Source: Peribolospora baueri (lineage: Eukaryota). Taken from it: 64,000 bases of DNA. A program made the position numbers and the translations under genes. Under the pieces are notes generated by a model. That model searched no databases. It saw nothing but the letters and a program-made list of their open reading frames with translations, and had not been told where the DNA came from. The DNA is taken from positions 62,001 to 126,000 of the forward strand of contig JAMDHS010000002.1 in assembly GCA_029717555.1 (NCBI GenBank), given 5' to 3'. Shown in pieces: positions 3,592-62,850 of the stretch (position 1 is the first letter of the stretch; the number at the start of each line of letters is the position of its first letter).

Positions 3592-3972
3592 TCATTCGTC
3601 CGAGTCGAGGACATTGCCACCCATCTCCTCAATCAGCGGGGCCTTCCTCCCTTCCTCCCGAGATTGGTCCTCTTCATCCACGGCATCGTCACCGTCGCCG
3701 CTGTCATTCAGGGTGGACCGGGATCGAGCAGCGGCCTCCCGCTTGGCCATCATCTCGAGCAGGAAGGCCTCTGCCCCTGATAGCGCATTCGCGTGCGCGC
3801 CCGCTGCGCTGCTATCCGTGCCGGTCAGGATCTGTCGCCAGCCTTCGTTTGCCTTTTCGCCGTCGTCGTCGACATGGCTGCCTTCGTCCTCTGTAGTCGA
3901 ATCTTCATCAGCGTCAGAATTGGAAGTCGTCGAGGACAAAGGTGACGATGTCGAATTAGAGTCTGCGCTCAT

Positions 3973-4003
<31 letters not shown>

Positions 4004-4714
4004 GAAGCGGAGGAGGGTTTCGCTGTGGAGAGATTGTCGGTCATGGTCGCCTTCATGGACGCCCTTTCTTGTTCTTTGCACGCGCCGCGCTCCTGGTTCT
4101 CACCGTCCAAGATCGGCTGGGTTTCCCTCTCTTTTCCCTTGGACTCGACCTTTTGCTTGCGTTTTCTTCGTCTTGTAGCACGGTTTGGGCGTTCCTCGAA
4201 GACGCCGAGTCCAAGGTCCTGTCGCGAACACGGACGACCACGGCCGGTTGAGCTGGTGCTTACGTTATAAGCGCACGATGGTGACAGATAAAAGTTATAT
4301 CCACCAATTCCACGTAAGGTCGTTGCGCGCCTTCGGCAGACTCAGCGCCCAAGCTATCGTCCACATCCATCACGACTCTTCCTTCGCCTTGCTCGAGTTG
4401 AGCGTTGGCATCCCGGATCTGAGGTAGAAAAGCCTGCAGGCGCGAGAACACTGCAAACAACGGTCCCACAGAGTCAAAAAAGACCAATACATCCAATCAG
4501 GATGCCTCGAGAAACAAACTCACGGTCAGATGGCTCCGGAACTGCGAACATTTCGGGGGGAGCGACGGGTCTCGCTGACTGAGCCCCTACGTCCCTTTGA
4601 AGGAGTGCCTCTGGGCAAGTATGGGAGCAGGTTGAGTTGATATGGCAGCATAGTAGAGGCAATGAGTAATGGCTCACCTACGGCTCTCCTCCTGGCTTGT
4701 GACTGGTCTGACAT
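3592..4714 (-). CDS. DUF4598 / NOPCHAP1 (C12orf45)-like acidic protein, multi-exon
   Basis: Spliced reading gives LFSRLQAFLPQIRDANAQL...PYVEL-DLGLGVFEE, then a long acidic tract and a C-terminal PLIEEM. ATG at 4714 is followed by a GTGAG donor. Confidence 0.7.
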
Positions 4715-5015
4715 TGCCTTGCTTCCTTCACTTTGCCTCTGTCGGTCGTCGGTCTCGATACGAGTTGGGAGGACGTCTCGATCGGAAAAGAAAGACTGCG
4801 GTGCATCACGTGCACGAGACCGCGTTGCGCGTCCGACGCGTGAATATGCAGATTACGAGACGGGAACGTCGTTCAACTTCTCCGGCAGACGGATGCTAAA
4901 TAGAGAGCAACGCAGGCCGGCAGGGGTGCTGGTTTCCTCCTTCGCACCACCGCAACTCTCAGCGACGATCAACCGACCCAACCGTCTCTCGTCTGTCGTT
5001 AGCGACGCTTTCACC

Positions 5016-7360
5016 ATGTCAGCCGAGTCGGACATTTGTCTCCACCCGGACATTCTTCACTGCCTCAAGAGGAAACAGCTCGTGAGCCTTTGCCGTCGAT
5101 TCGACATCAAAGCCTCTGGAAAGGTACGTGATGGTTACAAAAAGCAGACTACTCTTCGTGCCATTGACTCTCATTATTGGCTTCCATTCTTCGCCTCCCT
5201 AGAACACTGATCTGATTGCCAAGCTCCAGGCATACGCCGCCACGATACCCCCCAACAGCCCCACAAATGGACTACTTGTTGTCGGCGATCACGATGACAA
5301 GGGGAATGATGACGACGACAAAGACAGCTCCGATATCGACAACGCTCGTAGCGAGATGGGGTTGCTTGTTCCGTCCAATACTTCTGATAACCAATCGAGC
5401 CTAGGTGGGAGCAGCAGGAATAGCACCATGAGCAGCACCATGAGCAGCACCATGAGCAGCACAAGGGGCAGCACAAGGAGCGCCAGAACTAGGAGTATCA
5501 ACACGAGTAACGCCCGAATGAAGAGCACGACCACTAAGGACAAGGATGAGGATGCTAGTGACGAAACGGCCTCCCTTGCTCCTTCCAAAGCCTCTGACAA
5601 CAAGTCAAGTCTAGGCAGGAGCAGCAGGAGCAACACCATGAGAAGCACCATGAGCGGCACCATGAGCAGCACAAGGAGCAGCACAAGGAGTGCCAGCATT
5701 AGGAGCACCAACGCCATTAACGCTAGCAGTAACGCCCGCATCAAGAGCACGGCGACGAAGGACAAGGATGAGGGTTCTCGTGGCGAAACAGCCTCCCTCG
5801 CTCCTTCCAAAGCGTCTGATATTAAGTCGAGCCTGGGTAGGACTAGCAGACTTGCGACGGACAGTTTGCGGAGGCCCGACAGGAGCAATACCAGCGCGCG
5901 GAACCCCATCAAGAGGACCGCCAGCATGCGGAGCACGGCTACGAGCAGCAGTCCGAGCAACATTACGACGAGCACCGACGACAGTGCCTCGAGCGACAAG
6001 GAGATGGCGGAAGGCCCTGCGAAAAAGAAACCTCGGACTGCTGTCTCCCAGGCTGGAGCCCCTATCACTTCGACGTCTAGCTCTCGCCCGGCGTCCAACT
6101 CTCGCCCGGCGTCCAGCTCTCGCCTGACGTCCAGCTCTCGCCCGGCGTCCATCTCTCGCCCATCTATCTCTCGAGGTACACAGGGCAGGAATCTCAGTAG
6201 TCCGCGCTCGCCCATGTGCTCGCAAGCGCGCTCGCCCGTCCGCTCGCCAGTCCGCTCGCCAGTCCGTTCGCCAATCCGTTCGCCACTACGCCCGTCAATC
6301 CATTTGCCCATCCGCTCCATTCGCTCGCCAGTTCGCTCGCCAGTGCGGCCTTCCATCCCCAACGGGATCTTATCCCGTAGCACGCCTGGCAAACCTCCTC
6401 TCAGTCCTTCGCGACCGCTCGCGTCGCCTTCTATCTCCAAGCTGGCCAGCCCTCAAGCCCGTGCCGAGGCGAATATTGGGAATCCTCGCTCGCCTGCCCC
6501 GCCTTCTGTTTCCAAAACAGCTTTCTCGGAAGCCACCGCTGCCGTTTTGGCTGAGATGAACGCTCGCATGAAAGCGAGCAAAGGCGACTCCGCTATGCCG
6601 GCGACAGCCGCAAGTCTAAACTTTGGCGAGAACAAGGCTACTGCGCCTCCTCCTAGCGTGCTGGGAGTGAAGCGCAAGCAGTCGGAGAGTGAAATGACCA
6701 GCAAGTTCGATGGACAGCACCAAAAGGAATTTGCAAAGTGAGCTCTTCTATCCAACTTGTCTCTCTGTTGTTATGCTGCTTGTAGAGAATGTTGCTTACA
6801 GGGGTAACCGGTTCTTCGTTGAGTAGAATGGGCTCAATTGCCAGCCATTACTCTCTAAAGCGGAAAGATCCTTTCGGCTCTCAGCCTAGCCCTTCGACGA
6901 AATCTTCGAGCGTCGCGTCAAGGAGCGATGCGCCCATCGTCGCGGGCGACGGTCAAAGCGGCCGCGAAACAAAGCGAATGCGCACGATGGACGGTAATGC
7001 CGCTCCGATTGCCAAGAGTACGACGGCGGACAAGCTCAAGCAAGAGGAATGGACGGCTGAAAAGCAGAAGCAGGACAAGGAAAAGAGGCTGCAGTTGGCT
7101 AGGCAGAGGAGGGCGGGAGCCGTCGGTCCTGGTGGGCGTGAGTATGGTAGCCTTCCCAAAAAAACCCGCAGTCAGAAAGAGCTTGTGTCTGATTCTGTCT
7201 TTGTAACTTTTCAGGCAAATCGCTGGCGCCTCAAGCTCGGCCAAAGACTAATGTTGCGACCCGCTTCCTTAAGACCGCAGGTGCTGGAGTGCGCAACGCT
7301 GTGCAGTCCGTTAAGACACTTGCTGGCGGGAGCGGCGACAAGAACATCCGTAACGTGTAG
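5016..7360 (+). CDS. NuSAP-like protein: N-terminal SAP domain, Ser/Arg/Pro-rich repeats, conserved helical motif, basic C-terminus; 4 exons
   Basis: SAP-like LHCLKRKQLVSLCRRFDIKASGK|NTDLIAKLQAY (intron 5124-5202). Motif FDGQHQKEFAK|MGSIASHY (intron 6738-6826). Last exon reads open to TAG at 7358-7360. Confidence 0.7.
5371..5849 (+). repeat. Intragenic tandem duplication (~210-220 bp unit, 2 copies plus a partial third) with nested 12-bp AGCACCATGAGC repeats
   Basis: Units start near 5371, 5581 and 5803. The two full units encode PS...SSLG..SR..TMSSTR.STRSA...NAR.KST.TKDKDE....ETASLA. Confidence 0.9.
6075..6345 (+). repeat. Coding minisatellites: 18-bp SSRPAS units followed by 12-bp RSPV/RSPI units
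   Basis: Repeated tctcgcccggcgtcca and cgctcgccagtc visible in the sequence. Confidence 0.85.
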
Positions 7361-7603
7361 GACGTTTGTCACCTCGTTAACACCCCGACGTAGGGGAAGA
7401 TACCCAGGAACGTGGTTCTTCTTTTTTTCTTCCCCAAGCTTCTTTTGGTTTCTGGTGTAGTTTTACCTTAGGCAGCCTCACAGGAGGGGGTATGGCCCGA
7501 AATGCCTTCTACGTTGACTATGAAGGAACGATGATTACAAAAAAAGGAATGTGAGAGTGTGCAGAAGAGCGAGGTAACGAACATGGTATGAAATACTCTG
7601 GAA

Positions 7604-9881
7604 TCAACGACGACTCGTTTCTTCGTCGTTCACCAAACCTGCCTTTTCGCCCCAGGTAGCGCTCGACTCGGCAGCGAGGGCTCCATCGTGGTCCATCTTG
7701 CTTCCATTACTGGGGACGTTGGTGATCGGGGCCTTGAACCACTTGCGCGCATCGATCAGGTACCACCCACCGGAACCAATAAGGACAACGCCAACTACAA
7801 GGAGAGAGACGAATGCATCATCCTTCAGTGATCCACGTTGAAAATTGCGCCGGATATAGCGCAGCAACACTCACAGATAAGGACAGCCCAGTTCATTGTC
7901 TCCTTGGTGGGCTGGCTATCCGGCGGACAAAGCAGCAAGAAGATGATGAAGATCACCCACGCCGACGCAATGGCTCCGCATGGGATGGCGAACTTGCCGA
8001 GTGACCAGGAGCCGGCCTTGAAGCGTGATCGACCAGAGGTAATACGGAGGAAGATTGGGATCGCATAGGAGATGTAAAGAGCTATTACGGAGCAGGAGGA
8101 CAGAGCATTAATGGCTGCAGGAGTTGGAGGAGAGAGTGCATGCAGAGAGAAGCCGGACATGTGAGCGGAACAAGAACACCTCAAGGCAGCACACGAAATG
8201 AAGAACACACCTGTCCCAGATGTCTGGAATGTGAGGAGACCGAGCAATGCGCTCCCACTGGCAACGAAGGCGACTGCGTTTACGGGCGTCCGAGTCCAAC
8301 CATTGACATGCTTCCACCACCGGGAGCCTGGAAGAGCGTTGTCCCTTGCGAAGGCGAAGACAACGCGGCTGGCATCAACCAGTTGAGCGCAACTCGTGAC
8401 GTACTGTTGAAGTAACGGAGAAAGAGCGAGAAGGGCCGTCAGGGCGGCGAGATTTGAAAGGAAGGCATGAACACGGCCAGAGACGCTTACCTGAACAATG
8501 ATCACAAGCGACCAGATAGCAAGCATGCCGTGCTTGCCCAGCACGTTGAGGAAGACCTGGGCCATTGGGAGGGGCAGGTCGCTGCTGAGCAAGTCTGGGA
8601 CGCTCGGAATCACGAACGAAGTGGCGATATTCAGAGCCCAGCCGAGGATGGCCGTGCCGGATACAGCGGAAACGATGGCGACGGGTCCCACTTTGGCTGC
8701 GTTTGTCGTCTCCTCAGCGATGTGGGCGGCTGAGTCGTATCCGGTCAGCGACCACATGGCACTCGTAAGAGACAACAAGAAAGCCATTCCATTGTTTGAC
8801 CAGCCACTGTTATTCTCAAACTGAAACAGGACCAAAGTATCAGCAATATGATATGTATCCGTATTTCGTTCACAATTGGTACTTTTTGAAGGACCAGCTC
8901 ACCTTGCCAAAAGCGACCGACGCTGGTTGCTTATCCCCGAGGACGGCGAACGCAATGATAACGGCCAGGGTGGTGCCGACGTTGATGAGCACGTAGAACA
9001 CATTGATACGAGCGAGAAAGCCAGTGGCGGCGCTGCAGAGGAACAGCTGGCTCGCGAGAAGAACGATGAAAATTCCGTAGATCGCGCCGGTGCTTAGGAC
9101 AGTGCCAGAGCCGACCTGGATCGCGCAAGCAATCATCTCGGAATTCGTGAACGCTGGTGGATCAAAAATTCACACAGTGAGAGCTAATCCTTTCAGCGAC
9201 GCGATATGGTCATATCGAGAGCGGCACGAACGCTCACCTATAGAGCAGACTAAAGACACTTGTCCGGTGATGTTGGACCAACCGGTGATCCAGCTAGCAA
9301 TGGGCGCGTAGCCTTTTGGCGCCAAGCGGGCGGACCAGTAATACAAGCCACCAGATGTGGGCATAGCTAATGGGTGAGGAAAGGGGGGTACGGAAGAGAG
9401 GGTGGCAATATTAAGCTCAAGCAGCGAAGCGAGCGCCTTTTTGGCCTATTTCACGGCTTTCATTAGGTGGAAACCTTGACTCACCAGAGCAGAGCTCAGC
9501 CATGGAAAGAGCGACGGTCATGACGAAAACTGCGGCTGTAATCCAGCCCCATACTGCAACAGAAGAGGCGAATCACTTTAGGTCAGGCTGTCCTACGCGA
9601 CGTTGCCGGAGGTCTCTTTGGCACTCACCGATGCCGACGTGACCGGCGTTATCTAGAGGAAAGTTGAGCGTAGCAGAGACAGAGGCGACGACACCCATGA
9701 TACTGAAACAGAAGCATGCCGTCGTCAATGCATTGAACTCGCGCTTGAACTCCTGCTTGTAACCGAGTCCGGCCAGGAGCTGCTCATCAGCGTTGAGAGA
9801 CGCAGGCAAGCTATCGCCGGCCGAGGCGGATTGGACGACCGCCCTGATCTTTTCTTTCGCCGTATTAGTGGTAGGCGACAT
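7604..9881 (-). CDS. APC superfamily amino-acid/amine permease (ACT family, GABA/choline/polyamine-permease-like), multi-exon
   Basis: LGYKQEFKREF, ELCSAMPTSGGLYYW, GYDSAAHIAEET, SRVVFAFARDNALPGS, ARKWF, and many hydrophobic helices. Confidence 0.92.
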
Positions 9882-10931
9882 GTCTGTCAAACGGAAAGAC
9901 AACGGACTCTGTGGAGGTGTGGAGTGGGACGAGAGGAAGAAAAAGAGGGAAGCAAAGTTGACGAGGGAGTTCATATGCGAATCGGGCTCGATGCCAGAAC
10001 AGAAGCTTCGTAGCCAAAACCGCCGGGAGCGTACGTTGCTGCATTGAGAGGATGAATGCGATATCAGTGCACAGAATCTGACTATCGAGAACGGGCGAAG
10101 CGTTATCAGCGCCGCATGTCGTCTAGTACGCCCTGATTCCGATTTTCGGCAATCCCTTAATGCGCTCGTCATAGATCCAATGTAAGACTGGTTGAAGACT
10201 AAGGTGGGGTCAGGAAAGCGAAGCCAGCTCATGACATGGCCGTATGAGTTACGAAACTGAGAAGATACGGGCCATGCTGGCGATAGATAACTCATCGTCG
10301 GGCTCGAAGCGACGGACGCGACGGAGGCCCGCCCATCTTGCTTTGTTGCCCCTCCCCGCGCAACTCAGGCCCAGAGACCAGCGACTTGACCGCGCGACAA
10401 ACCGAGCTGCTTCCGGACCTTTCCGGTGTAAGAGAAGAGCGGCAAGTGTGCGCATCCTCGTCGTCGACCCTTATCAGCGTGGTCTTCTTATCTTGCCGCC
10501 AGGCGTCCTCGCCTCTCACGGCATGCCCCTTTATCGCCGCCGCTCATGGCCGCAGTCGCGTTACGTTCTCCAAGTGTCACCCGCTGCTGTCCGTTTGTCA
10601 CTCCTCGATGGACGCTTGCCGTGAGGTGTCCAACGTCGTTCGTTAGCCTCCTCAGGCACCTCGAGGCGTTTCATCAAGCCTACACCGATTTCGAGCCGTT
10701 TATCTGACTGATCAATGAAAAGTCCGAGCTGATCTGATCGCAAGGTTGAGAGGCTCTCGCAGACGGACTTTTTTTTGAGTGCGTGCTTCTTTGGTTAGCT
10801 CACTTCGGAGCAACCTTGAGCAGGTGTTTCGCTACCTCTTTTCTCCTCCTCATCCTTACCCCCCCTCCTCCTGCAGCTATCTCATCTCTTTTCCTCGTCT
10901 CCTCTTTATTCACTAACTTTTTGTTACGGTT

Positions 10932-12780
10932 ATGTCAAACCACGACCCAACAGAACGCTCGCCGCTCCTCTCCGACGCGTCCGAGGACGCCTGGGACGAA
11001 CGCCTTGAGGTGGCGCTCTCCTCCTCGCCAGCCCATAGGCTGGGTTGCGAGCTGCTCCTGCTCCTGCGCCGATCCATTCCCGTCAGCTTTGCCTACACGC
11101 TTCAGATGTCTCTCCAGACCGTGTCAGTTCTCCTCGTCGGACGACTAGGCCCCGACGAACTGGCCGCCGCTGCAAGCGCCTACATGATCGCCATGGTCAC
11201 GGGTGAGTATGGGCGTGTGTGGGCGAGTATGTGAAAAGTAGATGACGAAAAAAACAAGGTGATATTGACCGCTGTTCTCACGCCCTCGGTACGCAGGCTG
11301 GACGGTTGCTCTCGGCGGGACGACAGCTTTGGATACGCTCGCTTCGCCCCTCTTCACGGCCTCGCCGACGCCATCGGACGTCGGCGTCCTCCTCCAGCGT
11401 GGTCTTTTCGTTCTATATCTGCTTTATATCCCTGTTGCTGCTCTTTGGTTCTGGATCGCACCCGTGTTTCGCCTCCTCGGGCAACACGAAGGGCTTAGCG
11501 ACAACGTCCAGGCATTCCTCCGTGTACTTATCATCGGAGCGCCGGCTTATATTGGTTTTGAGAGTGTTAAAAAATATTTGCAAGTTCAAGGTGAGTCGAT
11601 TTTGTCTTCCTACACAGAGGTATTCGGGTGAAGCATCATTGAAGGGTCCGTCTCACGGTGTATGTCTCTATCTGTCCCTCCAGGCTTGATGTCACCATCG
11701 ACGCTCGTCCTGGCGATCACTGCTCCCATCTGTGCCGGCCTAAACGTACTCTGCGTGCATACCCTGGACATGGGCCTTCTCGGCGCTCCATTGGCAACCT
11801 CCATCTCTTACTGGATCGCCTTTGTTCTTCTTTCTCTCGTTGCTCGCCTCGGACCGGGTAAAGCCTGCTGGGCGGGTCTGGACAGGAGGGCATTGAGCCC
11901 GCGAGGGTGCGTGCAGTTCCTCAAGCTCGCCGTTCCAGGCATTCTCATGGTCGGAACGGAGTGGTGGGCGTTCGAGATCGTCGCCCTGCTCGCCGGCCGC
12001 CTGCCAGGGAAGGCTCTTGCGGCACAAGGGGTCATCATGACTTGCGACCAGGTCATGAACACACTCCCTTTCGGCGTCGGCGTTTCCTCTTCCTCCCGCC
12101 TAGGCAACCTCCTCGGCCTTGGCAGGCCCGCTATTCCGCTAGCGAAGCTCTCTTCACAGGCTTCCGCGTCGCTCTCCACAATCTTCGGCGCTCTAGTCAT
12201 GCTGGTTTTGCTCGTCAAAATGGACACGTTCGGCTATCTCTTCTCCGATGACGCGGAGACGGTAGCCGCCGTGGCAGATGTTCTGCCTTATGTGGCCGCG
12301 TTCCAGATTTTCGACGGCTGGGCGGGCAGTTGTGGAGGACTTCTAAGGGGCATGGGTAGACAGGTAAGCGAATGATGGTGGGAGCCGGTTCCGGTTCGAA
12401 TGGGAGGCTCAGTCCCGTCTTCTTGGGTCCGCAGCACATCGGCGCCATTGTCAACGTAACGGCCTACTACCTCCTCGCCCTCCCGCTCGGCGCATTTCTG
12501 GCTTTTAACCGCCAAAAAGGCCTCGCGGGTCTCTGGTTCGGCCAATGTCTCGCGCTCTTCCTCGTCGGGTGAGCATCCTCACTCCCTCGCTTTATTCACC
12601 CCTTCCTGCTCCTGACCTTCATGCGTTGTGCGGTCTTCTTTTCAACACAGCGCGGGAGAGTACATTGTAGTTACTTTCGGCACCAACTGGGAGCACGAGG
12701 TAGACCTGGCGTGGCAGAGGGTCAAGTCGGACAAGCACGCCGCACCTCCGGCGGCCGAGGGGAGGATAGAGGAGGCGTGA
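10932..12780 (+). CDS. MATE family efflux transporter, multi-exon
   Basis: [56 protein letters not shown]....[24 protein letters not shown]. Last exon reads to TGA ending at 12780. Confidence 0.93.
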
Positions 12781-23876: not shown

Positions 23877-24018
23877 GCGAAAGAGGGGGAGTGTGCGATT
23901 CATGAAATCGCACGCAGAGGGCTTCAAGCGTTGGAGACGCGATGTTTGGCGTATGTGTACACGGACGTCGCGTTTTCCGCAGTGGCTCCCCCACCTCGAC
24001 ATTTTCCGTCGAACTGGT

Positions 24019-24175
24019 GCGCCAAGATATTATAGCTAATGGTCACCTGGATCATGTACCACCTATCCTACTGGGTCCCACAACTGCCTATGTCGAGGTG
24101 GGGGCGCCAAGATATTATAGCTAATGGTCACCTGGATCATGTACCACATATCCTACTGGGTCCCACAACTGCCTA
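24019..24175. repeat. 72-bp direct repeat (24019-24090 and 24104-24175, one mismatch) joined by an inverted copy of 23988-24002
   Basis: gcgccaagatattatagctaatggtcacctggatcatgtaccac(c/a)tatcctactgggtcccacaactgccta occurs twice. Confidence 0.95.
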
Positions 24176-48114: not shown

Positions 48115-49279
<1,165 letters not shown>

Positions 49280-50020: not shown

Positions 50021-52086
50021 ATGGGCGGCGACAACTCGCCGGAGGAGCTCTTCTCCGACGTAGATGAGCTCGAAGCAAAGGAGCTCGACTTGGACTTGGC
50101 GTCCGATGACGACGGCATCGACGAGGGCGATTTCGACATGGACGCGCTTCCGAACTCGGGCTCGGACTCGGATGCCGACTCGGACGACGACGACGAGCCC
50201 GTGACTGCCGCTAATTTTGAGGCCAAGTCGCGGGCTCTGGACGCCAAGCGAGTTCGACGGGCGGTCGAGGATCGCGAAGAGCTGTTGCGGAGTACGAAGC
50301 GGATGAAGGGCGATGAGGGCGCGGTGGGCGTGTCTCGAAGGGAGGGGAGCAGCGATGAGGATGTTGAGGAGGACGGAGACGAGGAGGATACGTTTGCGCT
50401 ACCTACGGTGGAGGAGAGGGAAGCGGAGAAGAAGATCGGAGCGGATCTGCAGGTGGTGCAGATGAGGATACAGGAGGTGGTCAGGACCTTGAGCGATTTC
50501 AAAAAGTTGGCCAAGGACGGGAGGTGAGTTGTTGACAGGTCAAGAGTGGCGTTCGCGCTCCTTTTCTTGCTATCTTTTTTGGCCAATGTCCTGTTCGCAG
50601 TTGCCAGAACCGGATCGTCTTGACGTTTGGTTATCTTTCTTCGCCTCTTACCCCGGCCATCCAGGTCCCGAACGGAATACGTCGAACAACTGATCAGCGA
50701 CATCTGCGATTATTACGGCTACAATCAGTACCTGGCCGAGAAGCTGTTCAACATTTTCAGCCCCGCCGAGGTGAGTGCGGTGGTGCAATGGAGTGGAAAG
50801 GCAGCTGGTCTCCCTCACACTGCCAGCGGCATGCTTGGCTGACGCAGACGTCGCTCGTCTCGTCCGCGCCAGGCCATCGAGTTCTTCGAAGCAAATGAGG
50901 TGCCACGACCAGTGACGATTCGAGCCAACACGCTACGCACCCGCCGACGAGACCTGGCGCAAGCGCTGATCAATAGAGGTGTCAATCTCGAGCCGATCGG
51001 CAAGTGGACGAAGGTGGGGCTGCAAGTGTTCGAGTCTGCGGTGCCCATTGGCGCTACGCCCGAGTATCTCGCCGGTCACTACATGCTTCAGGCCGCCAGC
51101 TCCTTCCTTCCCGTCATGGCGCTCGCGCCTCAGCCCAACGAGCGCGTGCTCGACATGGCCAGCGCGCCGGGTGGAAAGACGACGTACATGAGCGCCCTAA
51201 TGCAGAACACCGGTCTCGTCTTTGCCAACGACTCGAACAAAGCTCGGACAAAAAGCTTGACGGCCAACGTGCACCGTCTCGGATGTAAGAACGTTGTCGT
51301 GTGCAGCTACGACGGCAGGCAGTTCCCTAAGGTCATGGGCGGGTTCGACCGCGTGCTTCTGGACGCGCCGTGTTCGGGCACGGGCGTCATCAGCAAGGAC
51401 CCCAGCGTCAAGACCAACAAGGTGAGCTCATGTGGACGCGAAAGTGGGCGGATCGGGCGAGTGCTTAAAAGATTGTTTGCCTCTTATCCACACGGCGTCC
51501 GAATTGGCCTCTGGCTCGTGTGCGCGCAGAGCGAACGAGACTTTACTCTGCTCGCGCACCTCCAAAAGCAGCTGATCCTCTGCGCCATCGACTCGATCAA
51601 CGCTTCCTCGTCGACGGGAGGCTACGTGGTTTACTCCACGTGCTCCGTCACGGTGGACGAGAACGAGGCGGTGGTGGATTATGCGTTGCGGAAGCGACCC
51701 AACGTGCGCATCGTGCCCACCGGCATCGAGTTTGGAAGGGAAGGGTTAACGAGCTATCGGGGTCGGAAGTTTAATCCCAAGATGAAACTTGCGAGGAGGA
51801 TCTATGTGAGTAGGCCGTTGACGGGCGGCATAGTTCAGCCGGTGGGGGGCGCGTAACTCATCATTCGACCCTATCTTCGGTTCGCTTTTAGCCTCATGTC
51901 CACAACATGGACGGGTTTTGGCTCGTCAAGGTGAGTCTCGCTTCCCTCGTCCGTCTGGCCGCATCGTCCGTGCTGCTTGCGTCGCGCTCTCGCCCTGACC
52001 CCTCGTGACCCCTGCTCCATCTCCGAACACAGCTCAAGGTGGAGAAGAGCGCGACGGGCAAGAGGGCGGAGGAGACGGATGCGTGA
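50021..52086 (+). CDS. NOP2: 25S rRNA m5C methyltransferase Nop2, multi-exon
   Basis: YYGYNQYL, RPVTIRANTLRTRRRDLAQALINRGVNL, GATPEYLAGHYMLQ, LDMASAPGGKT, DRVLLDAPCSGTG, VYSTCS, PHVHNMDGF. Confidence 0.97.
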
Positions 52087-53092
52087 ACACGATCGTCGGT
52101 GGATCTTCTCAAGACGACCAGGCTACTGATTCGAGATGGAGATCGCTCCAAGGTTGCAGTCCGGAGACCAGGTCAGGTCCGATCCGAATCCGCTCCCGAA
52201 CGCTTTCATGGGTCTTCTGAGGGACGGAAGCGTATGTACGAATAAGCAACCATCGTTATACGGAGGCATCATTCCCCAATCTCAGTGCGGAGAGCATGCA
52301 TGATGCGATGAGTGTCCGAGAAAACGCATGTTAAATAGCAAGACAGATCACGCTCGATCGGACGGTAGGCGGTGAAGGGTCGCCGAGCGAGGCCGTGCGT
52401 GTTGTACAATATGTTTCGAACGGGTGAGCAAAGGTGGGGGAAAGGGGGCGTGTAAATGGTGAGTGGAGGATGCCGACGCACCAGCACATACGGAAGCGAA
52501 AACGAGAAGGGTCGAAGAGGGGAGTGGGAGAGCGTGAGCCCTTTCAACGCCCGGCGACGTACTGCATGTGCCGGGACGAGAGAGACAGATGACAGATACG
52601 AGGAGCGAATGACTGCGATGAAAAGACATGGCAACTTGGAAATGGACAGGAAGAGGTTTCTCAGCTGAGTTCGAGGGCGATGGGAAGGAGATCGATCGAT
52701 CGATCGATCTCGCTTTTTTGAGGATATGAGGGAACGACAAGAAATCGAGGCGCGCAGACGGTGACGGTCGAGAAGGTCGATTAGATCGAGGCGAGCAGGA
52801 CAGAAGTAGCCATCGTCCTCTCAGCATAGTCAGCTCGCTGAGGATGGGCCGTGACGCTTCGCGGCGACCTCATGATGATGGTGGTTACATGCGATCGGAT
52901 GGCCCGTGCCCAAAGTCATGTCACGTGCGTGCATCTATACAGTCTAGCGCGCGCGGTTGCACGCACGTCTCTCGCACGCTGACGGACACTGGGGACCGGC
53001 TGCGGCATCCATCGACAGGCGTCGACATTGGCGACCGCCTTCGCGCCTCTGAGCCTCCTTCGACGTTATCCACTCTTCAATCACTGCCCAAC

Positions 53093-53702
53093 ATGGATGA
53101 TTACGACGCCGCCGCCGCCGCCGAGCTCAAGAAGCGAAGGTCGTTCCGCAAGTACTCCTACCGCGGTGTAGAGCTTGACCAGCTTCTCGACCTTCCCAAC
53201 GAGGACGTGAGTGATCTTATCCCGATGGGGTGAAGGAAGAAGGGGAAGGGCGGCGGTGGTCTGAACCAAGCGTCGTTACACCGCTCACTCGTGTTCTGCG
53301 TGTCTGTTCTACTTTTCTGCTTCTCTCGTCCCATCGCGCCCGTTTATGGCCCACCTCCAGTTCATGAAGCTCGTACACGCTCGCGCCCGCCGGCGCTTCC
53401 AGCGCGGCCTGAAGCGCAAGCCGATGGGCCTGATCAAGAAGCTCCGCAAGGCGAAGAAGGAGGCTCCTCCGAACGAGAAGCCGGCGGTGGTCAAGACGCA
53501 CCTGCGCAACATGATCGTCGTCCCGGAAATGATCGGCTCGGTCGTCGGCATCTACAACGGCAAGGTCTTCAACACGGTCGAGATCAAGCCCGAGATGACC
53601 GGTCACTACCTCGGCGAGTTCTCCATCTCCTACACCCCCGTCAAGCACGGTCGCCCCGGTGTCGGTGCCACGAACAGCTCGAGGTTCATCCCCCTCAAGT
53701 AA
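53093..53702 (+). CDS. RPS15: 40S ribosomal protein S15 (uS19), 2 exons
   Basis: [21 protein letters not shown]|...[25 protein letters not shown]...[30 protein letters not shown]. Confidence 0.98.
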
Positions 53703-54489
53703 ACGCGGAAACCCAAAATCGACCGTTCGCCTCGGGCGACGGCCGGCGGACGGCGCCCGCGGCGCCCTGGGCGTTTTGTTCCGTTTGGAAGCTCGTCGGG
53801 GACGATGGATGGGAATGCATGCGACCAAGTGCGTGGTGTGGCGGGCTTTGGGCGACGCGGCCGGTGCGGTCGATCGGTCGTTGTTTTCACGGTTATGCGT
53901 GGTGAGGGGGAAAAGGGCGGTTGGACGACTCGGCCAGTAAACCCCCTGTGTGCACCTCAACCAGCGCTTCGGCTCTGTATGCTTCTGTTTGACATGTTCA
54001 TGTATGCCCACCTCGTTCACTTTCGAAGCCTCTTACCATCTCCCCCTTCCGGCGTGGAGGCCTCTTTGTCTTCGGCAAGGACCTGCGGTCTGAGAAAGAT
54101 GCCGTGTTGAGCAGACCAGGTCTCGCCAAGCTGGCGGGGCGCCATTGGAGACCCGGGCGATGTCATCCTTGTTTCGCTTTTTAATTCTTCAGACTCGACC
54201 CATCATAGGGTTTGTTCAAGGTGCATGGGGTACGTATCGTATCGCCTTGCCGCCGGCGTGACTGGAGCCCGACGAAAATTCACGCCGCGTGTGCTGTCGC
54301 TGATCAAAGCGGTTCTCCGTTGAGCTGGGACTGATAACATATGATGATGTGCGACCCGACCCAACCTCTACATAAACACCAAGGTCTGTTATTGAGCGTG
54401 CACATGGGTGAAGAAGAAATTTAAAAGGAAGACAAGATTAATAAGCCTCGCCTACAAGAGGGAGAGAAGAAGGTAAAGAAGAAAAGTGA

Positions 54490-54542
54490 GAGAAAATACG
54501 TAAAAGGAAAAAGAAAAAGAGGGAAACTAAAAGAAAAAGAAG
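54490..54542 (-). terminator. Oligo-T RNA polymerase III terminator tract downstream of 5S
   Basis: Several T4-T5 runs on the minus strand immediately after the 5S 3' end. Confidence 0.75.
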
Positions 54543-54660
54543 AACTGCAGCATTGAGGATTCCCGCGTGGTCCCCCACCGCAGTACTGACTCAACGGTAC
54601 CATGCTTAACTTTGCAGATCGGACGGGATGCAGTGCTTTCATGGTCCTATGGCCGCAGAT
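54543..54660 (-). rRNA. 5S rRNA gene (118 nt), apparently intact
   Basis: Minus strand reads ATCTGCGGCCATAGGACCATGAAAGCACTGCATCCCGTCCGATCTGCAAAGTTAAGC...AGTACTGCGGTGGGGGACCACGCGGGAATCC...GCTGCAGTT. The 5' and 3' ends pair. Confidence 0.97.
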
Positions 54661-54963
54661 GGAGAATAGAATGAGACCGAGATAGACATGCGTCTCATCC
54701 TGAGCCTTCCTCTGCTCTTTTCTGACTTTTGACCACTACCTGTCTCCTATAGAGGGAAGACCAACTGAGATAATTTTTTATTTTTATTTTTATTTTTTCC
54801 TTCTCCTTCTCCAAGTCATCCCACCGGAACAAATTTTTTGATTATTGATTATTTTCAGTCTCCACCTTTGCGTCGTCCTCACGGACGCCCGAGGCCTGAG
54901 TCGAATACGTAAAACTCCTTCTCACCAGAAGGATTAAAAAAGAGGAAAGCTCAACCAAGTTGA
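54661..54963 (-). other. Probable rDNA 3'ETS/IGS1 spacer between the LSU 3' end and 5S
   Basis: AT-rich ~300 bp between co-oriented LSU end and 5S, the arrangement known from many basidiomycete rDNA repeats. Small hairpin TTCAACTTGGTTGAG right after the LSU end. Confidence 0.7.
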
Positions 54964-55040
54964 ACAAACCTTTAGAACAAAGGCTTATTAGCCTCAGCAG
55001 ATCGTAGCAACAAGGCTACTCTACTGCTTACAGCACCCTG
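54964..55040 (-). pseudogene. 3'-terminal ~75 nt fragment of 25S/28S (LSU) rRNA
   Basis: Minus strand GGGTGCTGTAAGCAGTAGAGTAGCCTTGTTGCTACGATCTGCTGAGGCTAATAAGCCTTTGTTCTAAAGGTTTGT matches the conserved fungal LSU 3' end. There is no LSU sequence upstream of about 55040. Confidence 0.9.
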
Positions 55041-55650
55041 AGCCCGGGAAAGGTCGTCACGAAGCTCGGGCGAGACTGTGGCCGTCGATTCGATCTGGAC
55101 TGCATGAGCTGTGGCCTCGAAAGGTGAGTCGGATCATTCCAGTCGGGAGAGTGCGTCAATATTGACGTGGTAGCGTCCGGTGCGGTGCCGAATGTCTAGG
55201 CGCGACCGGTACTGGCTGACGATCAGAGACCAGCAGTAGGCGACTGTTGAGCTTCGCGGGCGCAACAAGCGACCTCCGTTTCGGTGGGCCAAAAGGTACG
55301 CTCTACGGAATTGAGCATCCTCGACAGGAAGAGGACAGGACGCTCGTGCGGTCGGTTTCGTCGGTTCCGGGTGCGAGCTGGTGGACTGCGACCGCCATAC
55401 CGTGTTTTTTGCTGACGTCGCAATAGAAGATGAACAGCCGCGAAAAGTCGGGACGGACGACAGCCGGCGAGCTGGTGAGAATGTTCTTCAGCTCTTCGAA
55501 GGAGCGCTTGGCGTCCTCTGTCGCTTCGACTTTGGCGGATTCGGTGAAGTGAAGTTCTTGCGGGCTGGTCCCCCCCTCTGTCGCCTTGACTTTAATTCCG
55601 CTCCCATTTTTTCGCCGAGGCGGCGCTTGCTTGTCACCGGCGGCAGGACA
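55041..55650 (-). mobile_element. Degenerate Ty3/gypsy LTR-retrotransposon pol fragment (RT connection and RNase H)
   Basis: Across frames: SFEELKNILTSSPAVVRPDFSRLFIFYCDVSKKHGMAVAVHQ, ERPVLFLSRMLNSVERTFWPTETEVAC, KLNSRLL/WSLIVSQYRSRLDIRHRTGRYHVNIDALSRL. Frameshifts, an internal deletion, no LTR seen. Confidence 0.88.
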
Positions 55651-55654
55651 TGAC

Positions 55655-56765
55655 GACTGAAAGGAAGGACCCAAACCCACGGCTTGAAAATGGCGTCCTT
55701 TCCGTTCGTCTCAACGTAGCTGGTCCAGACGAACCCGAGGGATGACCAGATCGTACGAGCGGAGGTGAGAAGCGGAGCTGACCTGAAACATCGTCGCCTG
55801 CCGACATAGTCGCGCGAGCCAAGCAATACTGAAAGCGACGCGAACGCACCTCAACAAACGGTTCATGCAGAATGCGGCGCAGAATTCCGCGGTCATGCGA
55901 AAGGCGAGGACGGTGGCGAGGAAAAGGGAGTCCTTCTAGAATAGCCTGGCGAAGCCAATGAAGACGTGCCTGCCCGGCTTCATTTGCTTTCCCTTCTGCC
56001 CCTCCTTGGACTTGGCTTCGGCCGTTGCGAGGTGGCCGCTGTTCGAGTCGCCCATCCACAGCCTCTTTCCGACCCTCCCACGAGTCCGTAAAAATACGGA
56101 TCGAGCAACGGCAGCGCCTTGTCGGCCAAGCCGGCCTGTTGTAATCTGCCAACAGAGGGAGATCGTCTTCGGGCACGGCGTCCACCTGAGAGGCACGTCG
56201 AATGAGCGGCTGCAACCAGGTCCAGGTGGATGAAGCTGATCGGCGAGCACGTTTGCTGTGGGTGCGGGCTGAGGTTGGTGACGTAGTCGTTGCGACTCCG
56301 GACGGGCGTCCAAACACGCGGGGTGATGAGGTGTACGAACGCACCGGCGAAGAAGACGAGGGAGAGGCGGAGGATGGAAACGGCTTGAAGGAGGCCGGGT
56401 TGGAGAGTGAAGAGGGGAGGATTTCGGTAGACGAAGGTGCACCAAGGGAGGATGTCTGTGAGCACGTAGATACTCATGGGTACGAAGAGGAGGACCATCA
56501 CCATCCTCCCCAGCGACTTGCGCGTCGAAACGCGCTTGGAGAAGGTCTGGATACAAGAGAAAGTGCTGAGGTAGGCGTAGAAGATGAGGTTTCCCAGCTC
56601 AAGGCACTCCTCAGAGCGCAGCTCGTGGCGAAGCTTCTCGGGGTCCTTCTCCTTCCGAAATCCCCTCTCCCATTCCTTCAAGAACCTTGCGCCGCCTTTC
56701 CCGTCGCTTTGTTCGTCCCGATCGTCGTCGTGATCTTTCGCTGCACATCGTCGCCTACCTGCTGC
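55655..56765 (-). pseudogene. Fragment of an ABCC (MRP-like) transporter gene (TMD0, linker and start of TMD1)
   Basis: LITPRVWTP...PHPQQTCSPISF/TWLQPLIRRASQV..VPEDDLPLLADY, RHVFIGFARLF*KD...MNRLL|.YVETNGKDAIFKPWVW. Several frameshifts, TAG at 55936-55938, retained intron 55720-55849, no nucleotide-binding domain. Confidence 0.8.
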
Positions 56766-58276
56766 AGAGCAAATGGTACACAGCACGTGCGAGGTTCAGT
56801 CGGTCTGTCTGAGAAGAGCAAGGGAAGAAAGAGAAAAAAGAGAAAAAAAAGGTCGGACGTGAGGGGATGAGCGTGACGAGTTGTGGTTGACGTAAACACG
56901 CGCCGAAACACGCGCCGACCGTCGCCATCCGGAACGACGAACGAGACGAGACGAGGCGACGCGAGGTGTTTCCTAGTCTAAGTGCTCCCGGCGGGCCCGG
57001 CGGGCGGGAAGGTGGCGATGGGGCGACGGCAGTGCTTGGAGGTTTGTACTTGCATGCATGCACACATACAGACAGACAGACAGACAAACGTACAGTGCTG
57101 TCTGCACGTGGGTACAGAGGGAGAAGGGCGAGGGGGAGAGAGAGGGAGAGGGAGGGAGGATGGGGGCGATGTTGGCATGCGACGACGCCACTCGCGCTCA
57201 CTAACGGAGATACAGGGGATGGTGGGAGAGAGAGAAAGGGTATTGTTAACGAGATGGGGGGACGAGAGCGCGGGTGACGCGGTCGAAGAGAATTTCTTGC
57301 ACGACCGACCGACGGACCGGGGAGCGTATCGGAGAGTGCCGTCCATTCATTCATCAAGACAGGGACATTTGCGCTTCTTCTTTTTCTTTTTCTTTTTTTT
57401 TTTTTTGCTGACATGGGACGATGCCGCAGTTTGAAATTTCCATTAGACTCGTACTGGTACTTGGTTCCAATGCTTGCTTGGCTTGGCTCCATCGGGGTAC
57501 GGACCGTCGCCCCAGGCGCGTGCAGCGGCATAGCATCGCATGGCATCGCATTGCGTCGCATCGCATGTGTCGCAGGCAAAGGAAAAGAAAAAAGGGAACG
57601 GATGAAAGGATAGATATTTTTCCGTATTTTCTAACTAAGTAGATAGACAGACGCACGCAGGCACGACACGAGCCACCCGAGCCGAGACCAGACCAGACCG
57701 GCGGTCCGGCCCCACTCGCCGTCCGTCCCGCGGTGGGATCGGTGGATCGGCCGGGCCGGCGGCAAGCTGCAAGCGGCGTGGGGCAGGCGCGACACGCGCA
57801 AGATAGGTGGAGGGGGAGGAGGAGGATGGGATGATGCTACGATGATGACAGGCGGTCCGTCGCGTCGCGTTACGTTCACGTCACTGGGAATGGAAGGACG
57901 TCGTCGTCGTGCCAGAGCACGCGCGCGCCGTGAACGGTAACGGTAACGGTAACGAGGACAAGGGCTCGTGACCGTTGAAGCGCAGCGCTGCGTTGCGCTC
58001 CGGAGGCGAGCGGAGAGGCGACATTGAGTATTCCAACGTAAACGTAACTCGTGAGCTGTGCTGTCTGTCCTGTGACCAGGAAACGAGGTCAAGTCAAGTC
58101 AAGTCGACTTGAGTTGAGTCTGTGGCGCGCGGGGGACCGGCGTATAATAAGCGACGGCGACGACGGACGAACGGACGAAAGGACGGAGGGGGCGGCCACT
58201 TCTGCGCGTGCGTTGTGGGACCTGACCAGCCCGCCGGTCTCGACCGTCTGTACCGTGTTCCCGTCCGGCGGCAAAC

Positions 58277-58867
58277 GGCATGGCATGGCATGGCATGGCA
58301 TGACGTGGCATGTCATGGCACGGCTGGCTGGCTTAGCTTCGCTTGGCTCGGCATGGGCATTGCAACGCCAGGCAGGCGGGGAGGCCACGGCAGGGATAGT
58401 ATGGGGGCACGGTAGACGAACGGAGCGGAGGGAGCGAGGGTGGCTGCTGTCGGCACCAATTTTTCCTTTCTCTTTCTTTCCACTCCTCCTCCGTCCATCC
58501 GTCCTTCCGTCTCCAGCCGGCGGGAAGGAGACAGAATGGAAAAGGGAGGGACGGGTGGTCTGCTCGCTTCGGCATCCATCGGGGACATTCTCATCTCTAG
58601 TCTTGCTTTTCTCTTTGGCCTGGCCAAGCGAGCCACGAGCCACGAGCCACGAGCCACGAGTGACTAGTGGCTAGCGGCGTGCTAAGCTGGATGACCGCCC
58701 CGCATTGGCGTCCTTGCGAGCGTACCTTTTTTGACGTTGTCGCGAGTCGAGGAAGTTGTGTGTCGACTGCGACTGTTTGTATAGTCCAGTCACCGTGCCA
58801 TGTCCGCCCAAGCCATGATGGAGCCGGACTGGACTGGCCGACGACGACGACGACGACGACGACGACG
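58277..58867. repeat. Simple repeats: (GGCAT)5 at 58277-58301, (GAGCCAC)4 at 58630-58657, (ACG)n at ~58839-58867
   Basis: Read directly from the sequence. Confidence 0.9.
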
Positions 58868-59912
58868 AAGGGACGGAAGAAGGAAGAGGCGAGGCGGGCG
58901 GGTCGGGACGCCAAGCGAGGCAAAGCGGCTTCGCGCGTGCCTCGCCTCGCTGAGCCGAGTGTGAGCCGCAGGCACCGGCGCGTCAGGAACGGGCTGCGGA
59001 GGAAGAAGGAGTGAGATGCAGATGGGGATGGGCAGGGAGGGAGATGATAGCCAGCGAGACGAGACGCGTAGATACACACTCACACATTCGTCGATTCCAT
59101 TTCGTCCCCCACTCGTCGTCTCGCTTTCCGACGCTGTCCCTCCCGCCGTATTCCATCACCTTACCGTCGTCTGTCGCCCCACTGTTTTGTCCCGTACCTA
59201 CCTTCCTGTACCTTACGGATGGCTTGCTTGTTTGTCGGCTCGGATCGGTCGCTCGTGCCCGCCCAAATGCATCCATCCATCGTATCCTTCCCTTGGTGTG
59301 CGTGGTGTGACCGGCCGCTTACGCTTACGCGCGCGTCAGCTGCAAAGCCCACGCGCGCTGCCGACTCCATCTCGTGCAACGACCGACGACCGAGGCTGTG
59401 GGATGATCGACGCCCCAGGCCAAGGCCGCGGCTCCCTCCACTCCCGCCCGCCCGACCGCCACGCACGCGCGCCCGCCGGAGGTGCGCAGGTGGAGGAAGA
59501 GGAAGGGACGACAGAGACGACAGGGGACGGGACGCTGCAATGCCATATATGTGCCATGCTATGGACATGGACGAGGCACGGGATGCGATGGGGATGAACG
59601 ATGATGGGACGGCGATGATGACGCGAGTCACAAACACCCACCATCCTCGTCCTCGTCATGCACCTCACCTCCCTCACCATCACCGTTCACATAAGCGACA
59701 ATAAACGTGGTCGCCCTCGTCGTCGCCCGTCCCTTTCTTTTCCTCCTTTCTCTCTTCCCCCTTTCGGTCCGACTACTCCCTTCTCCCCCGCACAAACCTA
59801 GGCTACTACTTATCGCCACCGCACACAGTCCGTCACCACTGCACCACCACCACCGCCTCCTCAACTTGCACCACCATCGCCGTCATCACCGCCATCGCCA
59901 CCACCACGTCGC

Positions 59913-62850
59913 ATGTCCACCTCCCACCCATCCTCCCCCTACGCCCTCCCCTCCCACCCCCACCCCCGCCTTGCCCCGCCAGCGCTCGTTCTAAAGCCGC
60001 CGACGCCATCGGAGCAAGACCAGGCGAGCATGGCCTCCGATGCAACCCCGCCCGCTGGCAGGTTTTCAAAGCTTGATCAGCGTCACCCGCCCAACACCAA
60101 CCACAGCAACAGCAGCAATCGTTCCAGTTGCGCCGACGCTCGCTCGAGACAGACTCTCTTCTCCGCCCCTGGTAGGAAGAGGCGTAGGTTGCAGAAGGTG
60201 AGCGAGCGAGCCGGCGGGCGCGGGAGGCAAGGCAGCGTAGGCACACGTCGCACCTCCTCGTCTCCTTTTCTTTGCTCACTTCCACCATGCTCCTCCCCAG
60301 GCCTGCGTCGCTTGTCATCGCGCAAAACGACGCTGCGACGGCTTCCTCCCCTGCAGCAACTGCGACTTTACCGGCCGCCAGTGCGTCTACAGCGACGCCA
60401 ACGGAAACCCCGTCCCTCCGCCGCCCCGAGCACCAGAGGCGAGGGACGCTGGCCGCGTCTCGGCCGCCGCTTATATCGCCTCCATCAACGGTGGTGCCGC
60501 CGGCACCGCTGCTGCCCCCACCTCTTCCTCCGCCTCGCCCTCCTCCCCTTCTCGTCCCTACGCCCCGCTCTTCGCCCATGCTACCGCCTCGTCGCCTGAT
60601 ACCGCCCTCTCCACGCACATCGGTGTATCGCCCGACGTCGACGCCGACCTCCAGCGCGAGTTCGTGGAAGGTGAGTCGGTCGGGCGGGCCCCATGTCGTC
60701 GTATCCCAGCTCAACCCTTCCTTCCGCCAGCCTTCTTCACCCACCTTCACCCCTTCAGCCTCCTCTTCCACCGCCCCACCTTCTTTCGCCACCTCCACCG
60801 CGCTGCCTTCTCGCCCCTCCTCCTCCACGCTCTCTACGCCGTCTCCGCCCGCCTCCTCCCGAGCCTCGCGGACGCCCACCGCGCCGGAGACGCCCATGCG
60901 CGCTTCGCTCGTGCCCTCCTCTTCTCCCCCGAGCGTCCCGGTAGCGAGCGCACGCCCATCGACGCCCCCGCCCTCGACACCGCACAAGCCCTCCTCCTCC
61001 TCGCCCTCCACGAGCTTGGCATGGCCAGGCTCGAGCGTGCATGGGCTTACCTTGGCATTTGCGTCCGCATGATCGCCGCCTTCGGCCTGCCCAGTCCTCC
61101 GAGAAGGAAAAGGAGAAGGAAGAGGGAGTGGGGAGAAGAGGAGGACGAGGAAGAGACGCAGGATGCCACCGTCAACCGCCTTTTCTGGCTCGCCTGGACC
61201 CTCGACGCCCTCCTCGCTTCCCTCCTCCGACGCCCGCGCGCCTTTTCCCCGGACGATGTCGCCCGTGTGCCCCTTCCCAGCGCCGACGACGCCTCCTTCC
61301 ATCGTCGACCCCACCCAGACGCCTACATCCGCTCCTCCCTCGCCGAGCAGGAGACCGTGTCCGAGTTTGGCTTGCTCGTCCGCGTCGTCGACCTGTTCGC
61401 CCGCGTCAACGCGCGCTGGCCGTCGCCGTCCACCTTTTCTCCTCCATCCCCATCCCCGTCTCCATCTTCATCCCCCGCCGTATCCCCATCCACCCGATCC
61501 GAGTTGGCCGAGTGCCACCGCGCCCTCGCCGCCTGGCGCGCCTCCGTGCCCTGTGGTGGCCTTGTGAACGCCGCCGCCGCCGCCGCCGCCACCGGAACCC
61601 TCAGGCCTGAGGCGTGGTGCTACTCGTTCATGCACGCCATTGCGCTCTGCGTCGAGTTGAGACTTTGCGAGGTGAACGCCGAAGCGAAAGAGAAACGGCG
61701 GGCTGTCGTCGCAGAGCTGATCAACGTGCTCGAGTCCTTCGTCCCCACCGGCTTCAAAAGCCCCCTCCTCGCCTATCCTCTCCACGTCTGCCACCAGTGT
61801 CAGGCCTCTTCGCCCGATGGCCGCGTCGAGCACCGCTTGCTTGCTTGGAAGGACGCGCTGGACACGTCGTGGAGGCTCCCTTGGGATCAGCTTTTCCCTC
61901 CCCGTCCGTCCGTCGAGCCTTGCGACCCCACCGCCACCGCCAGCGATCAAGGTCAACCCTTCTATCCCGCCCTGCCGCCTATGCACTTTTCCGACCGTCC
62001 TCCCATGGCCGCCGCCAGCGACATCGACGTCAAGCGCATCCGCAGCTTTAGCAGCCCAGAGCCCCACGCCGAGCCCCGCGTCGAGCCCGGCTCACCGGGC
62101 GGTTACCCTTTCTATTCGCCTCCTTCGCCCGCTGTGTCGCTCCTATCGCCTTTGACCAACGGCACTACTGCTCCGACGGCCAGCCCCGGTCCTCGCTCGC
62201 CTCCTCCTGCCCACGGCTCGTTCCCATCGCCTCAGCGCGCTCCTCATCCGGCCTACTACCACCCGCAGTCGGCTTCCCTCGCTCCTCCCTCGCCCGGTCA
62301 CTCGATCCATCACCGTTCCCATCACTCTCACTCGCGTAGCCAGCCCTGCTCGCCGGCGTACCAGGACGGCCACCACCCCCATCAGCACCAACACCACCAC
62401 CACCAGCACAGCGGCAGCGTCGATGGCTATCCCGACCTCCCGCCGCCGCCAGGCTCCGTGCTCCCGCCGTTGCGTGTCCCTTCACCGCGCCACTACGAGT
62501 ACGCGCCGTCCTCGGCCATTCCTGAATTGGCCGCCGCCAACCACGACGACCAGCGTCATCATCATCATCACCATTATCCGCACCACCACCACCTCGCCCC
62601 CGTACCAGCCACGTCGACGTGGCGAGCCGCCATCCCATCGCTCCCTCTGCCACTCCCTGCCACCTCTCCCACCGCCAGCGACCTCTCGAACCCGGTCCCC
62701 TCGGCAGCAGCGGCGGGGCACGGAGCTCGAGTCGAGCCTGGCTACGCGAACGCACACGGGCACATCCATGGACATGGACATGAACATGGGCTCGGCACGG
62801 CGCAGCTGCCGCCTCTCATGGGCTACCTTCGCGAGGAGAAGTCGATTTGA
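59913..62850 (+). CDS. Zn(II)2Cys6 transcription factor with fungal-specific TF domain and Pro/His-rich tail, 3 exons; start 59913 or ~60030
   Basis: RKRRRLQK|ACVACHRAKRRCDGFLPCSNCDFTGRQCVY, then FFTHLHP...FHRPTF, AQALLLLALHE, AWAYLGICVRM, RLFWLAWTLD. Confidence 0.93.

Follow-up and report, generated by a model that had tools for sequence, protein, structure and literature searches.

The window analysed here, 64,000 nucleotides from the basidiomycete Peribolospora baueri (GenBank assembly GCA_029717555.1, contig JAMDHS010000002.1, positions 62,001 to 126,000), contains a non-coding mosaic of ~2.3 kb, hereafter the patch, in the intergenic interval between the genes for RPS15 and a Zn2Cys6 factor. 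On the minus strand, going from 56645 to 54542, the patch consists of a fragment of an ABCC transporter gene, a relic of a retrotransposon pol gene, the 3′ tip of the large-subunit (LSU) rRNA gene, a spacer and a 5S rRNA gene. In this study, we confirm that the patch is real and that it is an old, decaying set of pieces from unrelated loci lying in near-direct abutment. It is a known kind of feature, a complex patch of captured DNA that includes a ribosomal DNA (rDNA) orphon, and it looks like an ordinary repair scar. We favor, with a probability of roughly 0.55, the capture of loose fragments by end-joining repair in one or a few chromosome breaks followed by neutral decay.

A first-pass annotation of this DNA had described the ABCC, Ty3/gypsy and rDNA pieces as coming from unrelated loci and as fused with little or no filler. 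Both points held: the three origins were recovered with tblastn, Pfam and Rfam, and at the ABCC/pol junction at most ~25 nt belong to neither piece. To these searches we added contigs of four public sequencing runs aligned to 52000-59000 of the window, two runs (X1 and X2) being of organism A and two (X3 and X4) of a related organism B.

Origin of the pieces

The rDNA piece is an orphon. Orphons are dispersed single copies derived from tandemly repeated genes, and in basidiomycetes the 5S gene is linked to the rDNA repeat. Contigs matching the LSU tip and the 5S gene are 40-180x deeper than single copy, and the summed depth in bins 54574-55041 is 3,600-11,051 compared with ~73-110 in the flanks. 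The deep contigs match two parts of the window, 54543-54720 (the 5S gene with 60 nt upstream) and 54936-55038 (the LSU tip with 28 nt), and since a single contig in X2 links both parts (joint 54720>54936, depth 4308), the 5S gene is linked to the LSU end in the rDNA repeat. They leave the window exactly at 55038, continuing with different sequence as expected for the LSU gene of the array, and again at 54543 or 54529, just beyond the 3′ end of the 5S gene. Thus, the piece is a diverged single copy of a stretch of the tandem unit, located outside the array amid unique DNA; single-copy contigs bridge into both of its sides and unique genes flank the patch. The spacer resembles the first intergenic spacer (IGS1) of the unit. 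Its ends, 54661-54720 and 54936-54963, match deep rDNA contigs, and its middle 215 nt match single-copy-depth contigs only.

The 5S gene scores 110 bits with RF00001 against a gathering score of 38, over model positions 1-120 of 120, and the consensus helices are present with a non-canonical flag on the terminal pair only. At one position or more it departs from the array 5S: at 54602 the window reads A and all or most of the deep contigs read T; the letter of the window is shared by ~600 of 5167 depth units in X2. Directly 3′ of the gene on the minus strand lies the run TTCTTTTTCTTTT, a putative T-run terminator. With its full, foldable sequence and this T-run, the orphon 5S copy could be transcribed from its internal promoter, as the working 5S gene of the first-pass annotation would be, though as one copy vs the far more abundant array-linked 5S. 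The T/C-rich tract that follows (54400-54541) may, judging from sequence, be either a diverged remnant of the second intergenic spacer (IGS2) or a purine-rich target-site tract. The LSU tip matches RF02543 with an E value of 3.1e-07 (model positions ~3330-3401, the model end) and high posterior over ~55038-54964; its 35.2 bits fall below the gathering score of 50 because the piece is 75 nt only. The part of this match at 55041-55100 has low posterior and is not rRNA.

The piece begins within the LSU gene and keeps the order of the unit, as it would if a truncated first unit (LSU tip, IGS1 and 5S) had once begun an array here that has since been lost or moved. The genome also holds a second long-spacer variant elsewhere, at single-copy depth (124.5 in X1) and with five listed differences from the window over 54727-54935; this variant may be a further orphon, or else a unit at the edge of the array. 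Against such an array-edge relic, Rfam at the gathering threshold returned the 5S gene only in the whole 64 kb, no small-subunit (SSU) gene or other part of the unit follows the 5S gene, and there are unique genes to the left and right at distances of 1-6 kb. We regard this explanation as quite improbable. Loose ends of contigs at 54661 and at 54529-54543 point to more 5S copies with other upstream and downstream sequences, so the genome has 5S genes in several contexts.

The ABCC fragment was assigned by way of a homologous protein. A phmmer search against 1.84 billion representatives gave five weak matches, three N-terminal ABC fragments and two low-complexity repeat proteins; the latter two were set aside as irrelevant to the identity of the fragment. 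Through one of the three ABC fragments, P0004, we reached 372 full-size ABC transporters of basidiomycetes, named as multidrug resistance-associated. PF00664 and PF00005 are present in all 120 listed of these 372 relatives, and for the homologue P0070 the best 60 solved chains are all ABCC members (ABCC2, YCF1, MRP1 and others). When 125 proteins were compared with the 64-kb window by tblastn, 146 high-scoring segment pairs (HSPs) were obtained at E<=0.01 (best 6.6e-11), all of them on the minus strand in 55459-56645 and colinear with residues ~100-343 of basidiomycete MRP-type transporters of 1350-1740 aa. Past residue ~343, tblastn found no trace anywhere in the 64 kb of a nucleotide-binding domain (NBD) or of the second transmembrane domain (TMD2), and the complete TMD1-NBD1-TMD2-NBD2 core is absent. 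Pfam gave no match on the ABCC frames, and a word-based homologue search with open reading frame (ORF) 55980-56795 gave none; the open frame extends to 56795 without similarity. The fragment has frameshifts near 56231 and between 56138 and 56040, as well as an in-frame TAG at 55936-55938. The intron proposed at 55720-55849 proved exact, with GTGCGT..CAG borders, a length of 130 nt and a phase that fits the HSP frames.

Its parent gene is also visible in the runs. In organism A, a second contig at single-copy depth covers the ABCC stretch 55676-56366 and also spans the intron, with indels. An X2 contig of 376 nt (depth 96.3) covering 56010-56366 has 27 substitutions relative to the window. Its five indels, 23 gap letters together, are -1 at 56228, +4 at 56125, -1 at 56075, +5 at 56054 and +12 at 56052. 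The first indel cancels the shift from frame -3 to -1 and the other four (net +20) cancel that from -1 to -2. In the second copy, a T>C change at 55937 turns the TAG of the window into TGG, and G>A at 55939 is synonymous (TTC>TTT). With the frame restored and TGG in place of the stop codon, an intact parent gene is therefore present elsewhere in the genome, and the ABCC piece of the window is a decayed, intron-bearing partial copy of it. Contigs of organism B over 55755-56052 carry different subsets of differences in X3 and X4 and may represent either the orthologue or the parent. Since the intron is kept, as it is in the parent copy, and the rDNA spacer is kept as well, the template was DNA or unprocessed RNA. 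The earlier reading that both pieces derive from DNA rather than mature RNA is thus supported, with unprocessed RNA as a further possible template.

The pol piece is a dead fragment. ORF 55303-55710(-) matches RT_RNaseH_2 (PF17919) with an E value of 9.2e-07 and 29.3 bits against a cut-off of 29.8, the one relevant match among 7 ORFs, and a second frame, 55226-55591(-), matches RT_RNaseH (PF17917) with E 0.0023. The nearest clusters in the protein atlas, which serve as a lead only, are RT_RNaseH_2 (0.84); a search of solved structures with the two gypsy frames reached reverse transcriptase (RT)/RNase H chains only at E ~0.5-0.7, nothing usable. From what the PF17919 and PF17917 families usually represent in fungi, the element is probably Ty3/gypsy rather than another group with long terminal repeats (LTRs). 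The relic is single copy at >= 80% likeness (depth 120-165). Repeat searches found neither LTRs nor flanking direct repeats belonging to it, and what is present is a fragment rather than an element. Near the ABCC/pol junction, inside the gypsy piece, there is a 19-nt direct repeat (55515-55533 and 55575-55593, 89% alike, 60 nt apart), and organism B has a 58-nt duplication plus 101 other letters at 55612-55669. This suggests local copying or slippage at the junction.

A scrap resembling TrpA is probably a fourth piece of the patch, in the opposite orientation. ORF 54111-54320(+) matches PF00290 with E 4e-04, the one such match among 53 ORFs, and TIGR00262 with E 2e-04. The top three protein atlas clusters carry Trp_syntA (0.80-0.82, a lead only), and phmmer against solved structures gave no match for the ORF. 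The stretch is single copy and is present in the flank contig of organism B too. The picture of three co-oriented pieces drawn by the first-pass annotation is therefore weakened: the main three do lie on the minus strand, and this probable relic lies on the plus strand.

Table 1. Features of the patch and its left edge. Positions are those of the window; frames refer to tblastn matches.
Feature	Position	Strand	Basis	Remarks
Probable tryptophan synthase alpha-chain relic	54165..54314	+	PF00290, TIGR00262	~50 codons; just outside the start of the stretch first annotated
T/C-rich tract downstream of 5S	54400..54541	-	sequence, composition	GC ~0.42; opens with TTCTTTTTCTTTT
5S rRNA gene, full-length, structurally intact	54542..54660	-	Rfam RF00001
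Spacer between LSU end and 5S, IGS1-like	54661..54963	-	contig joint and depth bins	303 nt
LSU rRNA 3′ tip	54964..55038	-	Rfam RF02543, model's 3′ end	last ~75 nt
Dead Ty3/gypsy-type pol fragment (RT end, RNase H, tether)	55039..~55640	-	Pfam; outer limits inferred from reading frames	several frames; without LTR
ABCC last exon piece	55665..55719	-	tblastn	(..YVETNGKDAIFKPWVWVL); ends in first helix of TMD1
Retained ABCC intron	55720..55849	-	gap between colinear HSPs, matching phase	GTGCGT..CAG, 130 nt
ABCC fragment, N-terminal membrane region and linker	55850..56645	-	tblastn frames -3/-1/-2	homologue residues ~100-325
ABCC HSP, residues ~100-234	56645-56232		frame -3
ABCC HSP, residues ~267-297	56230-56138		frame -1
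ABCC HSP, residues ~260-328	56040-55840		frame -2	in-frame TAG 55936-55938
ABCC HSP, residues 326-343	55718-55665		frame -3	12/18 identical to P0070

Reality, age and decay of the patch

An assembly chimera, named as a refutation in the first-pass annotation, failed when checked against the contigs of the runs. Single-copy contigs on the RPS15 side, of 5672 nt in organism A and 5674 nt in organism B, run from 52000 into the 5S gene (54566 and 54568, respectively). A 689-nt contig of organism A covers 55009-55697, and in organism B a contig of 1099 nt spans 54958-55754 and with it the LSU/pol as well as the pol/ABCC junction. Contigs of both organisms thus bridge the junctions, which excludes an assembly chimera, and since organism B has the same junctions the patch predates the split of A and B. 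Two joints with short sides, 54660>54988 (side 26) and 55923>56826 (side 21), were set aside.

At two places organism B is longer than the window, by 118 nt at 55265 and by about 159 nt at 55612-55669, so length changes within the patch continued after the split. Inside the patch, A and B differ by 2.0-4.2% (7/266, 13/310, 8/406 and 12/298) vs 1.8-4.2% in the flanks. Divergence of patch and flank is alike and there is consequently no sign of constraint, in keeping with neutral decay of the patch since its capture.

Proposed capture at breaks and the alternatives

Induced breaks in yeast receive insertions derived from Ty elements, rDNA, mitochondrial DNA and other nuclear DNA. Of ~33,000 such insertions, nearly 4000 were complex and consisted of two to four joined fragments, in some cases of mixed source (PMC11372161). 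The donors of the patch belong to the classes pasted into yeast breaks, and capture during end joining is therefore favored. In such a history, end joining would have ligated loose DNA into a chromosome break, or into a few of them, at a time before organisms A and B diverged; this loose DNA would have included rDNA pieces, DNA or cDNA of retrotransposons and part of a gene. The rDNA orphon would have been copied from a tandem unit in which 5S is linked to the LSU gene. The patch would later have drifted as the surrounding non-coding DNA does, gaining its frameshifts, stop codon and deletions. The data above establish the anatomy of the patch, its rDNA origin, the parent gene and the occurrence in organism B; the mechanism of capture and the number of events are what we infer.

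Several points weigh against this reading. Three of the four pieces are co-oriented, which random ligation predicts for three pieces ~1/4 of the time. The rDNA match stops exactly at the 3′ end of 5S, as an origin templated by RNA predicts; such a stop is unexpected for a random DNA fragment, unless the spacer beyond has diverged like the middle of IGS1. X1 and X2 may come from the sample behind the window assembly itself, and all four runs belong to one study. Finally, relatives with an empty site, as sought in the first-pass annotation, or with a partly filled one were not seen, as organism B, the sole relative found, already has the whole patch. One event and several are thus equally compatible with the data: the single multi-template capture proposed earlier fits in its sources, a capture from unrelated loci, and in its number of events it is indistinguishable from a series of steps.

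The main rival is indeed a stepwise history, in which a partial or whole ABCC duplicate landed first, a Ty3/gypsy element inserted into it, and the LTRs, most of the element and the remainder of the gene were later lost through deletions together with a separate rDNA insertion. Deletions are ongoing here, the window being short of the 118 nt at 55265 and the ~159 nt at 55612-55669 that organism B retains, the pieces are heavily decayed, and the TrpA-like relic on the other strand suggests that debris was collected repeatedly in the interval. On the other hand, there is no ABCC sequence beyond the inserts, as all 146 of the 146 HSPs are in 55459-56645 and neither NBD nor TMD2 left a trace in 64 kb. 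There is neither an LTR remnant nor a flanking repeat, and near-direct abutment would require trimming at every junction. A stepwise origin is possible, though we hold it to be unlikely.

The stop at the end of 5S invites another explanation, namely that a retrotransposon RT began its work on a read-through precursor of rRNA whose end was the 5S terminator, moved on to the RNA of its element and from there to ABCC pre-mRNA that was still unspliced, the resulting cDNA being captured at a break. Consistent with this are the shared orientation of the three main pieces with the retroelement in the center, the end of the array match at the 3′ end of 5S (54543), the derivation of the ABCC piece from the 5′ part of its gene, and the existence of tripartite template-switch chimeras in a fungus (PMC2104539). 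The fungal chimeras described there are, however, made by long interspersed nuclear elements (LINEs); they carry the 3′ part of a LINE and direct repeats of 14 bp (PMC2104539), neither of which is present here. The intron and the spacer are kept, poly(A) and a target-site duplication (TSD) are both absent, the ABCC similarity begins at ~residue 100 with no recognisable protein start, and the probable fourth piece is on the other strand. An origin of this kind appears improbable. That the three co-oriented pieces are one chimeric cDNA made specifically by an LTR-retrotransposon reverse transcriptase from a read-through rDNA transcript, its own RNA and unspliced ABCC pre-mRNA is, in our view, distinctly improbable as well. 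If true, it would represent an RNA-mediated escape of the array-linked basidiomycete 5S from the rDNA repeat, seeding dispersed and possibly expressed copies.

The first-pass annotation had also considered cargo of a Helitron-like element. Several unrelated gene fragments do adjoin, mostly in one orientation, as they might if a gene-capturing transposon, Helitron-like or other, had carried them here and since decayed. Nevertheless, neither a transposase nor a Rep/helicase domain was found among the 76 ORFs scanned around the patch, and further retroelement domains were lacking in the ORFs around it. The repeat searches around the patch found no LTR, terminal repeats, terminal inverted repeats or TSD, in agreement with the earlier statement that LTRs and transposases are missing, with the limit that no scan was aimed at Helitron-type ends. 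The gypsy part occurs once, and the additional copies of the remaining parts agree with a parent gene and rDNA variants rather than with a second composite. Cargo of this sort is highly improbable, and nothing found points to a Helitron.

Setting of the patch and comparison with known systems

The neighboring genes encode polyubiquitin, NOP2 and RPS15/uS19, with the Zn2Cys6 factor 3.4 kb further on; the best matches of NOP2 are to Basidiomycota throughout, at ~75-78% identity. The repeat searches found low-complexity purine tracts, 65-79% alike, bordering the patch on the left (54408-54544) and on the right (56809-56853). The right edge includes a 37-nt purine-rich stretch, 56810-56847, that is shared with other loci (bin depth 466-872, with loose ends on both sides). 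The tracts at the two edges (54408-54544 and 56810-56847) could be a fragile target tract. Beyond the patch, the ~3.4 kb upstream of the Zn2Cys6 gene (56870-60240) are rich in short tandem repeats, have no Pfam match in ORFs >= 60 aa and are unusually long for intergenic DNA in a genome of ~23 Mb; a Pfam scan of 53 ORFs in 53600-60370 detected no further relics in this stretch. Elsewhere in the window there are two 75-nt direct repeats at 24016-24175 (97% alike, 85 nt apart) and two 228-nt tandem copies at 48505-48960 (92% alike), which coincide with ubiquitin units of the polyubiquitin gene.

We see no indication that the patch has a function or arose by a new mechanism. Its value lies mainly in annotation, as pseudogene, transposable element relic and orphon 5S gene, and in a dated marker of repair history. 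It also illustrates one route by which an entire 5S gene can escape from the rDNA repeat in a lineage where the two are linked. As a patch fixed in two related fungi, it offers a clean natural example of the repair products obtained from yeast in the laboratory, with rDNA and retrotransposon fragments pasted at one place.

Three known systems are comparable. The bipartite and tripartite chimeric retrogenes made by LINEs in Magnaporthe and mammals (PMC2104539) share with the patch the head-to-tail arrangement of three unrelated sequences in one orientation, one of them from a retroelement; the patch differs in having no LINE part, poly(A) or direct repeats, in keeping an intron and a spacer, and in having an LTR-type retroelement in the middle. 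Like other orphons, the rDNA piece is a partial unit outside the array with unique flanks, diverged from the homogenised array copies, whereas it retains only ~500-640 nt of the unit and is fused to unrelated fragments. The insertions made during break repair in yeast resemble the patch in the direct joining of two to four unrelated fragments per event and in their donor classes, rDNA, retrotransposon DNA or cDNA and other nuclear DNA (PMC11372161). The patch differs from them in being natural, fixed and old, in belonging to a basidiomycete, and in extending over ~2.3 kb with a complete 5S gene.

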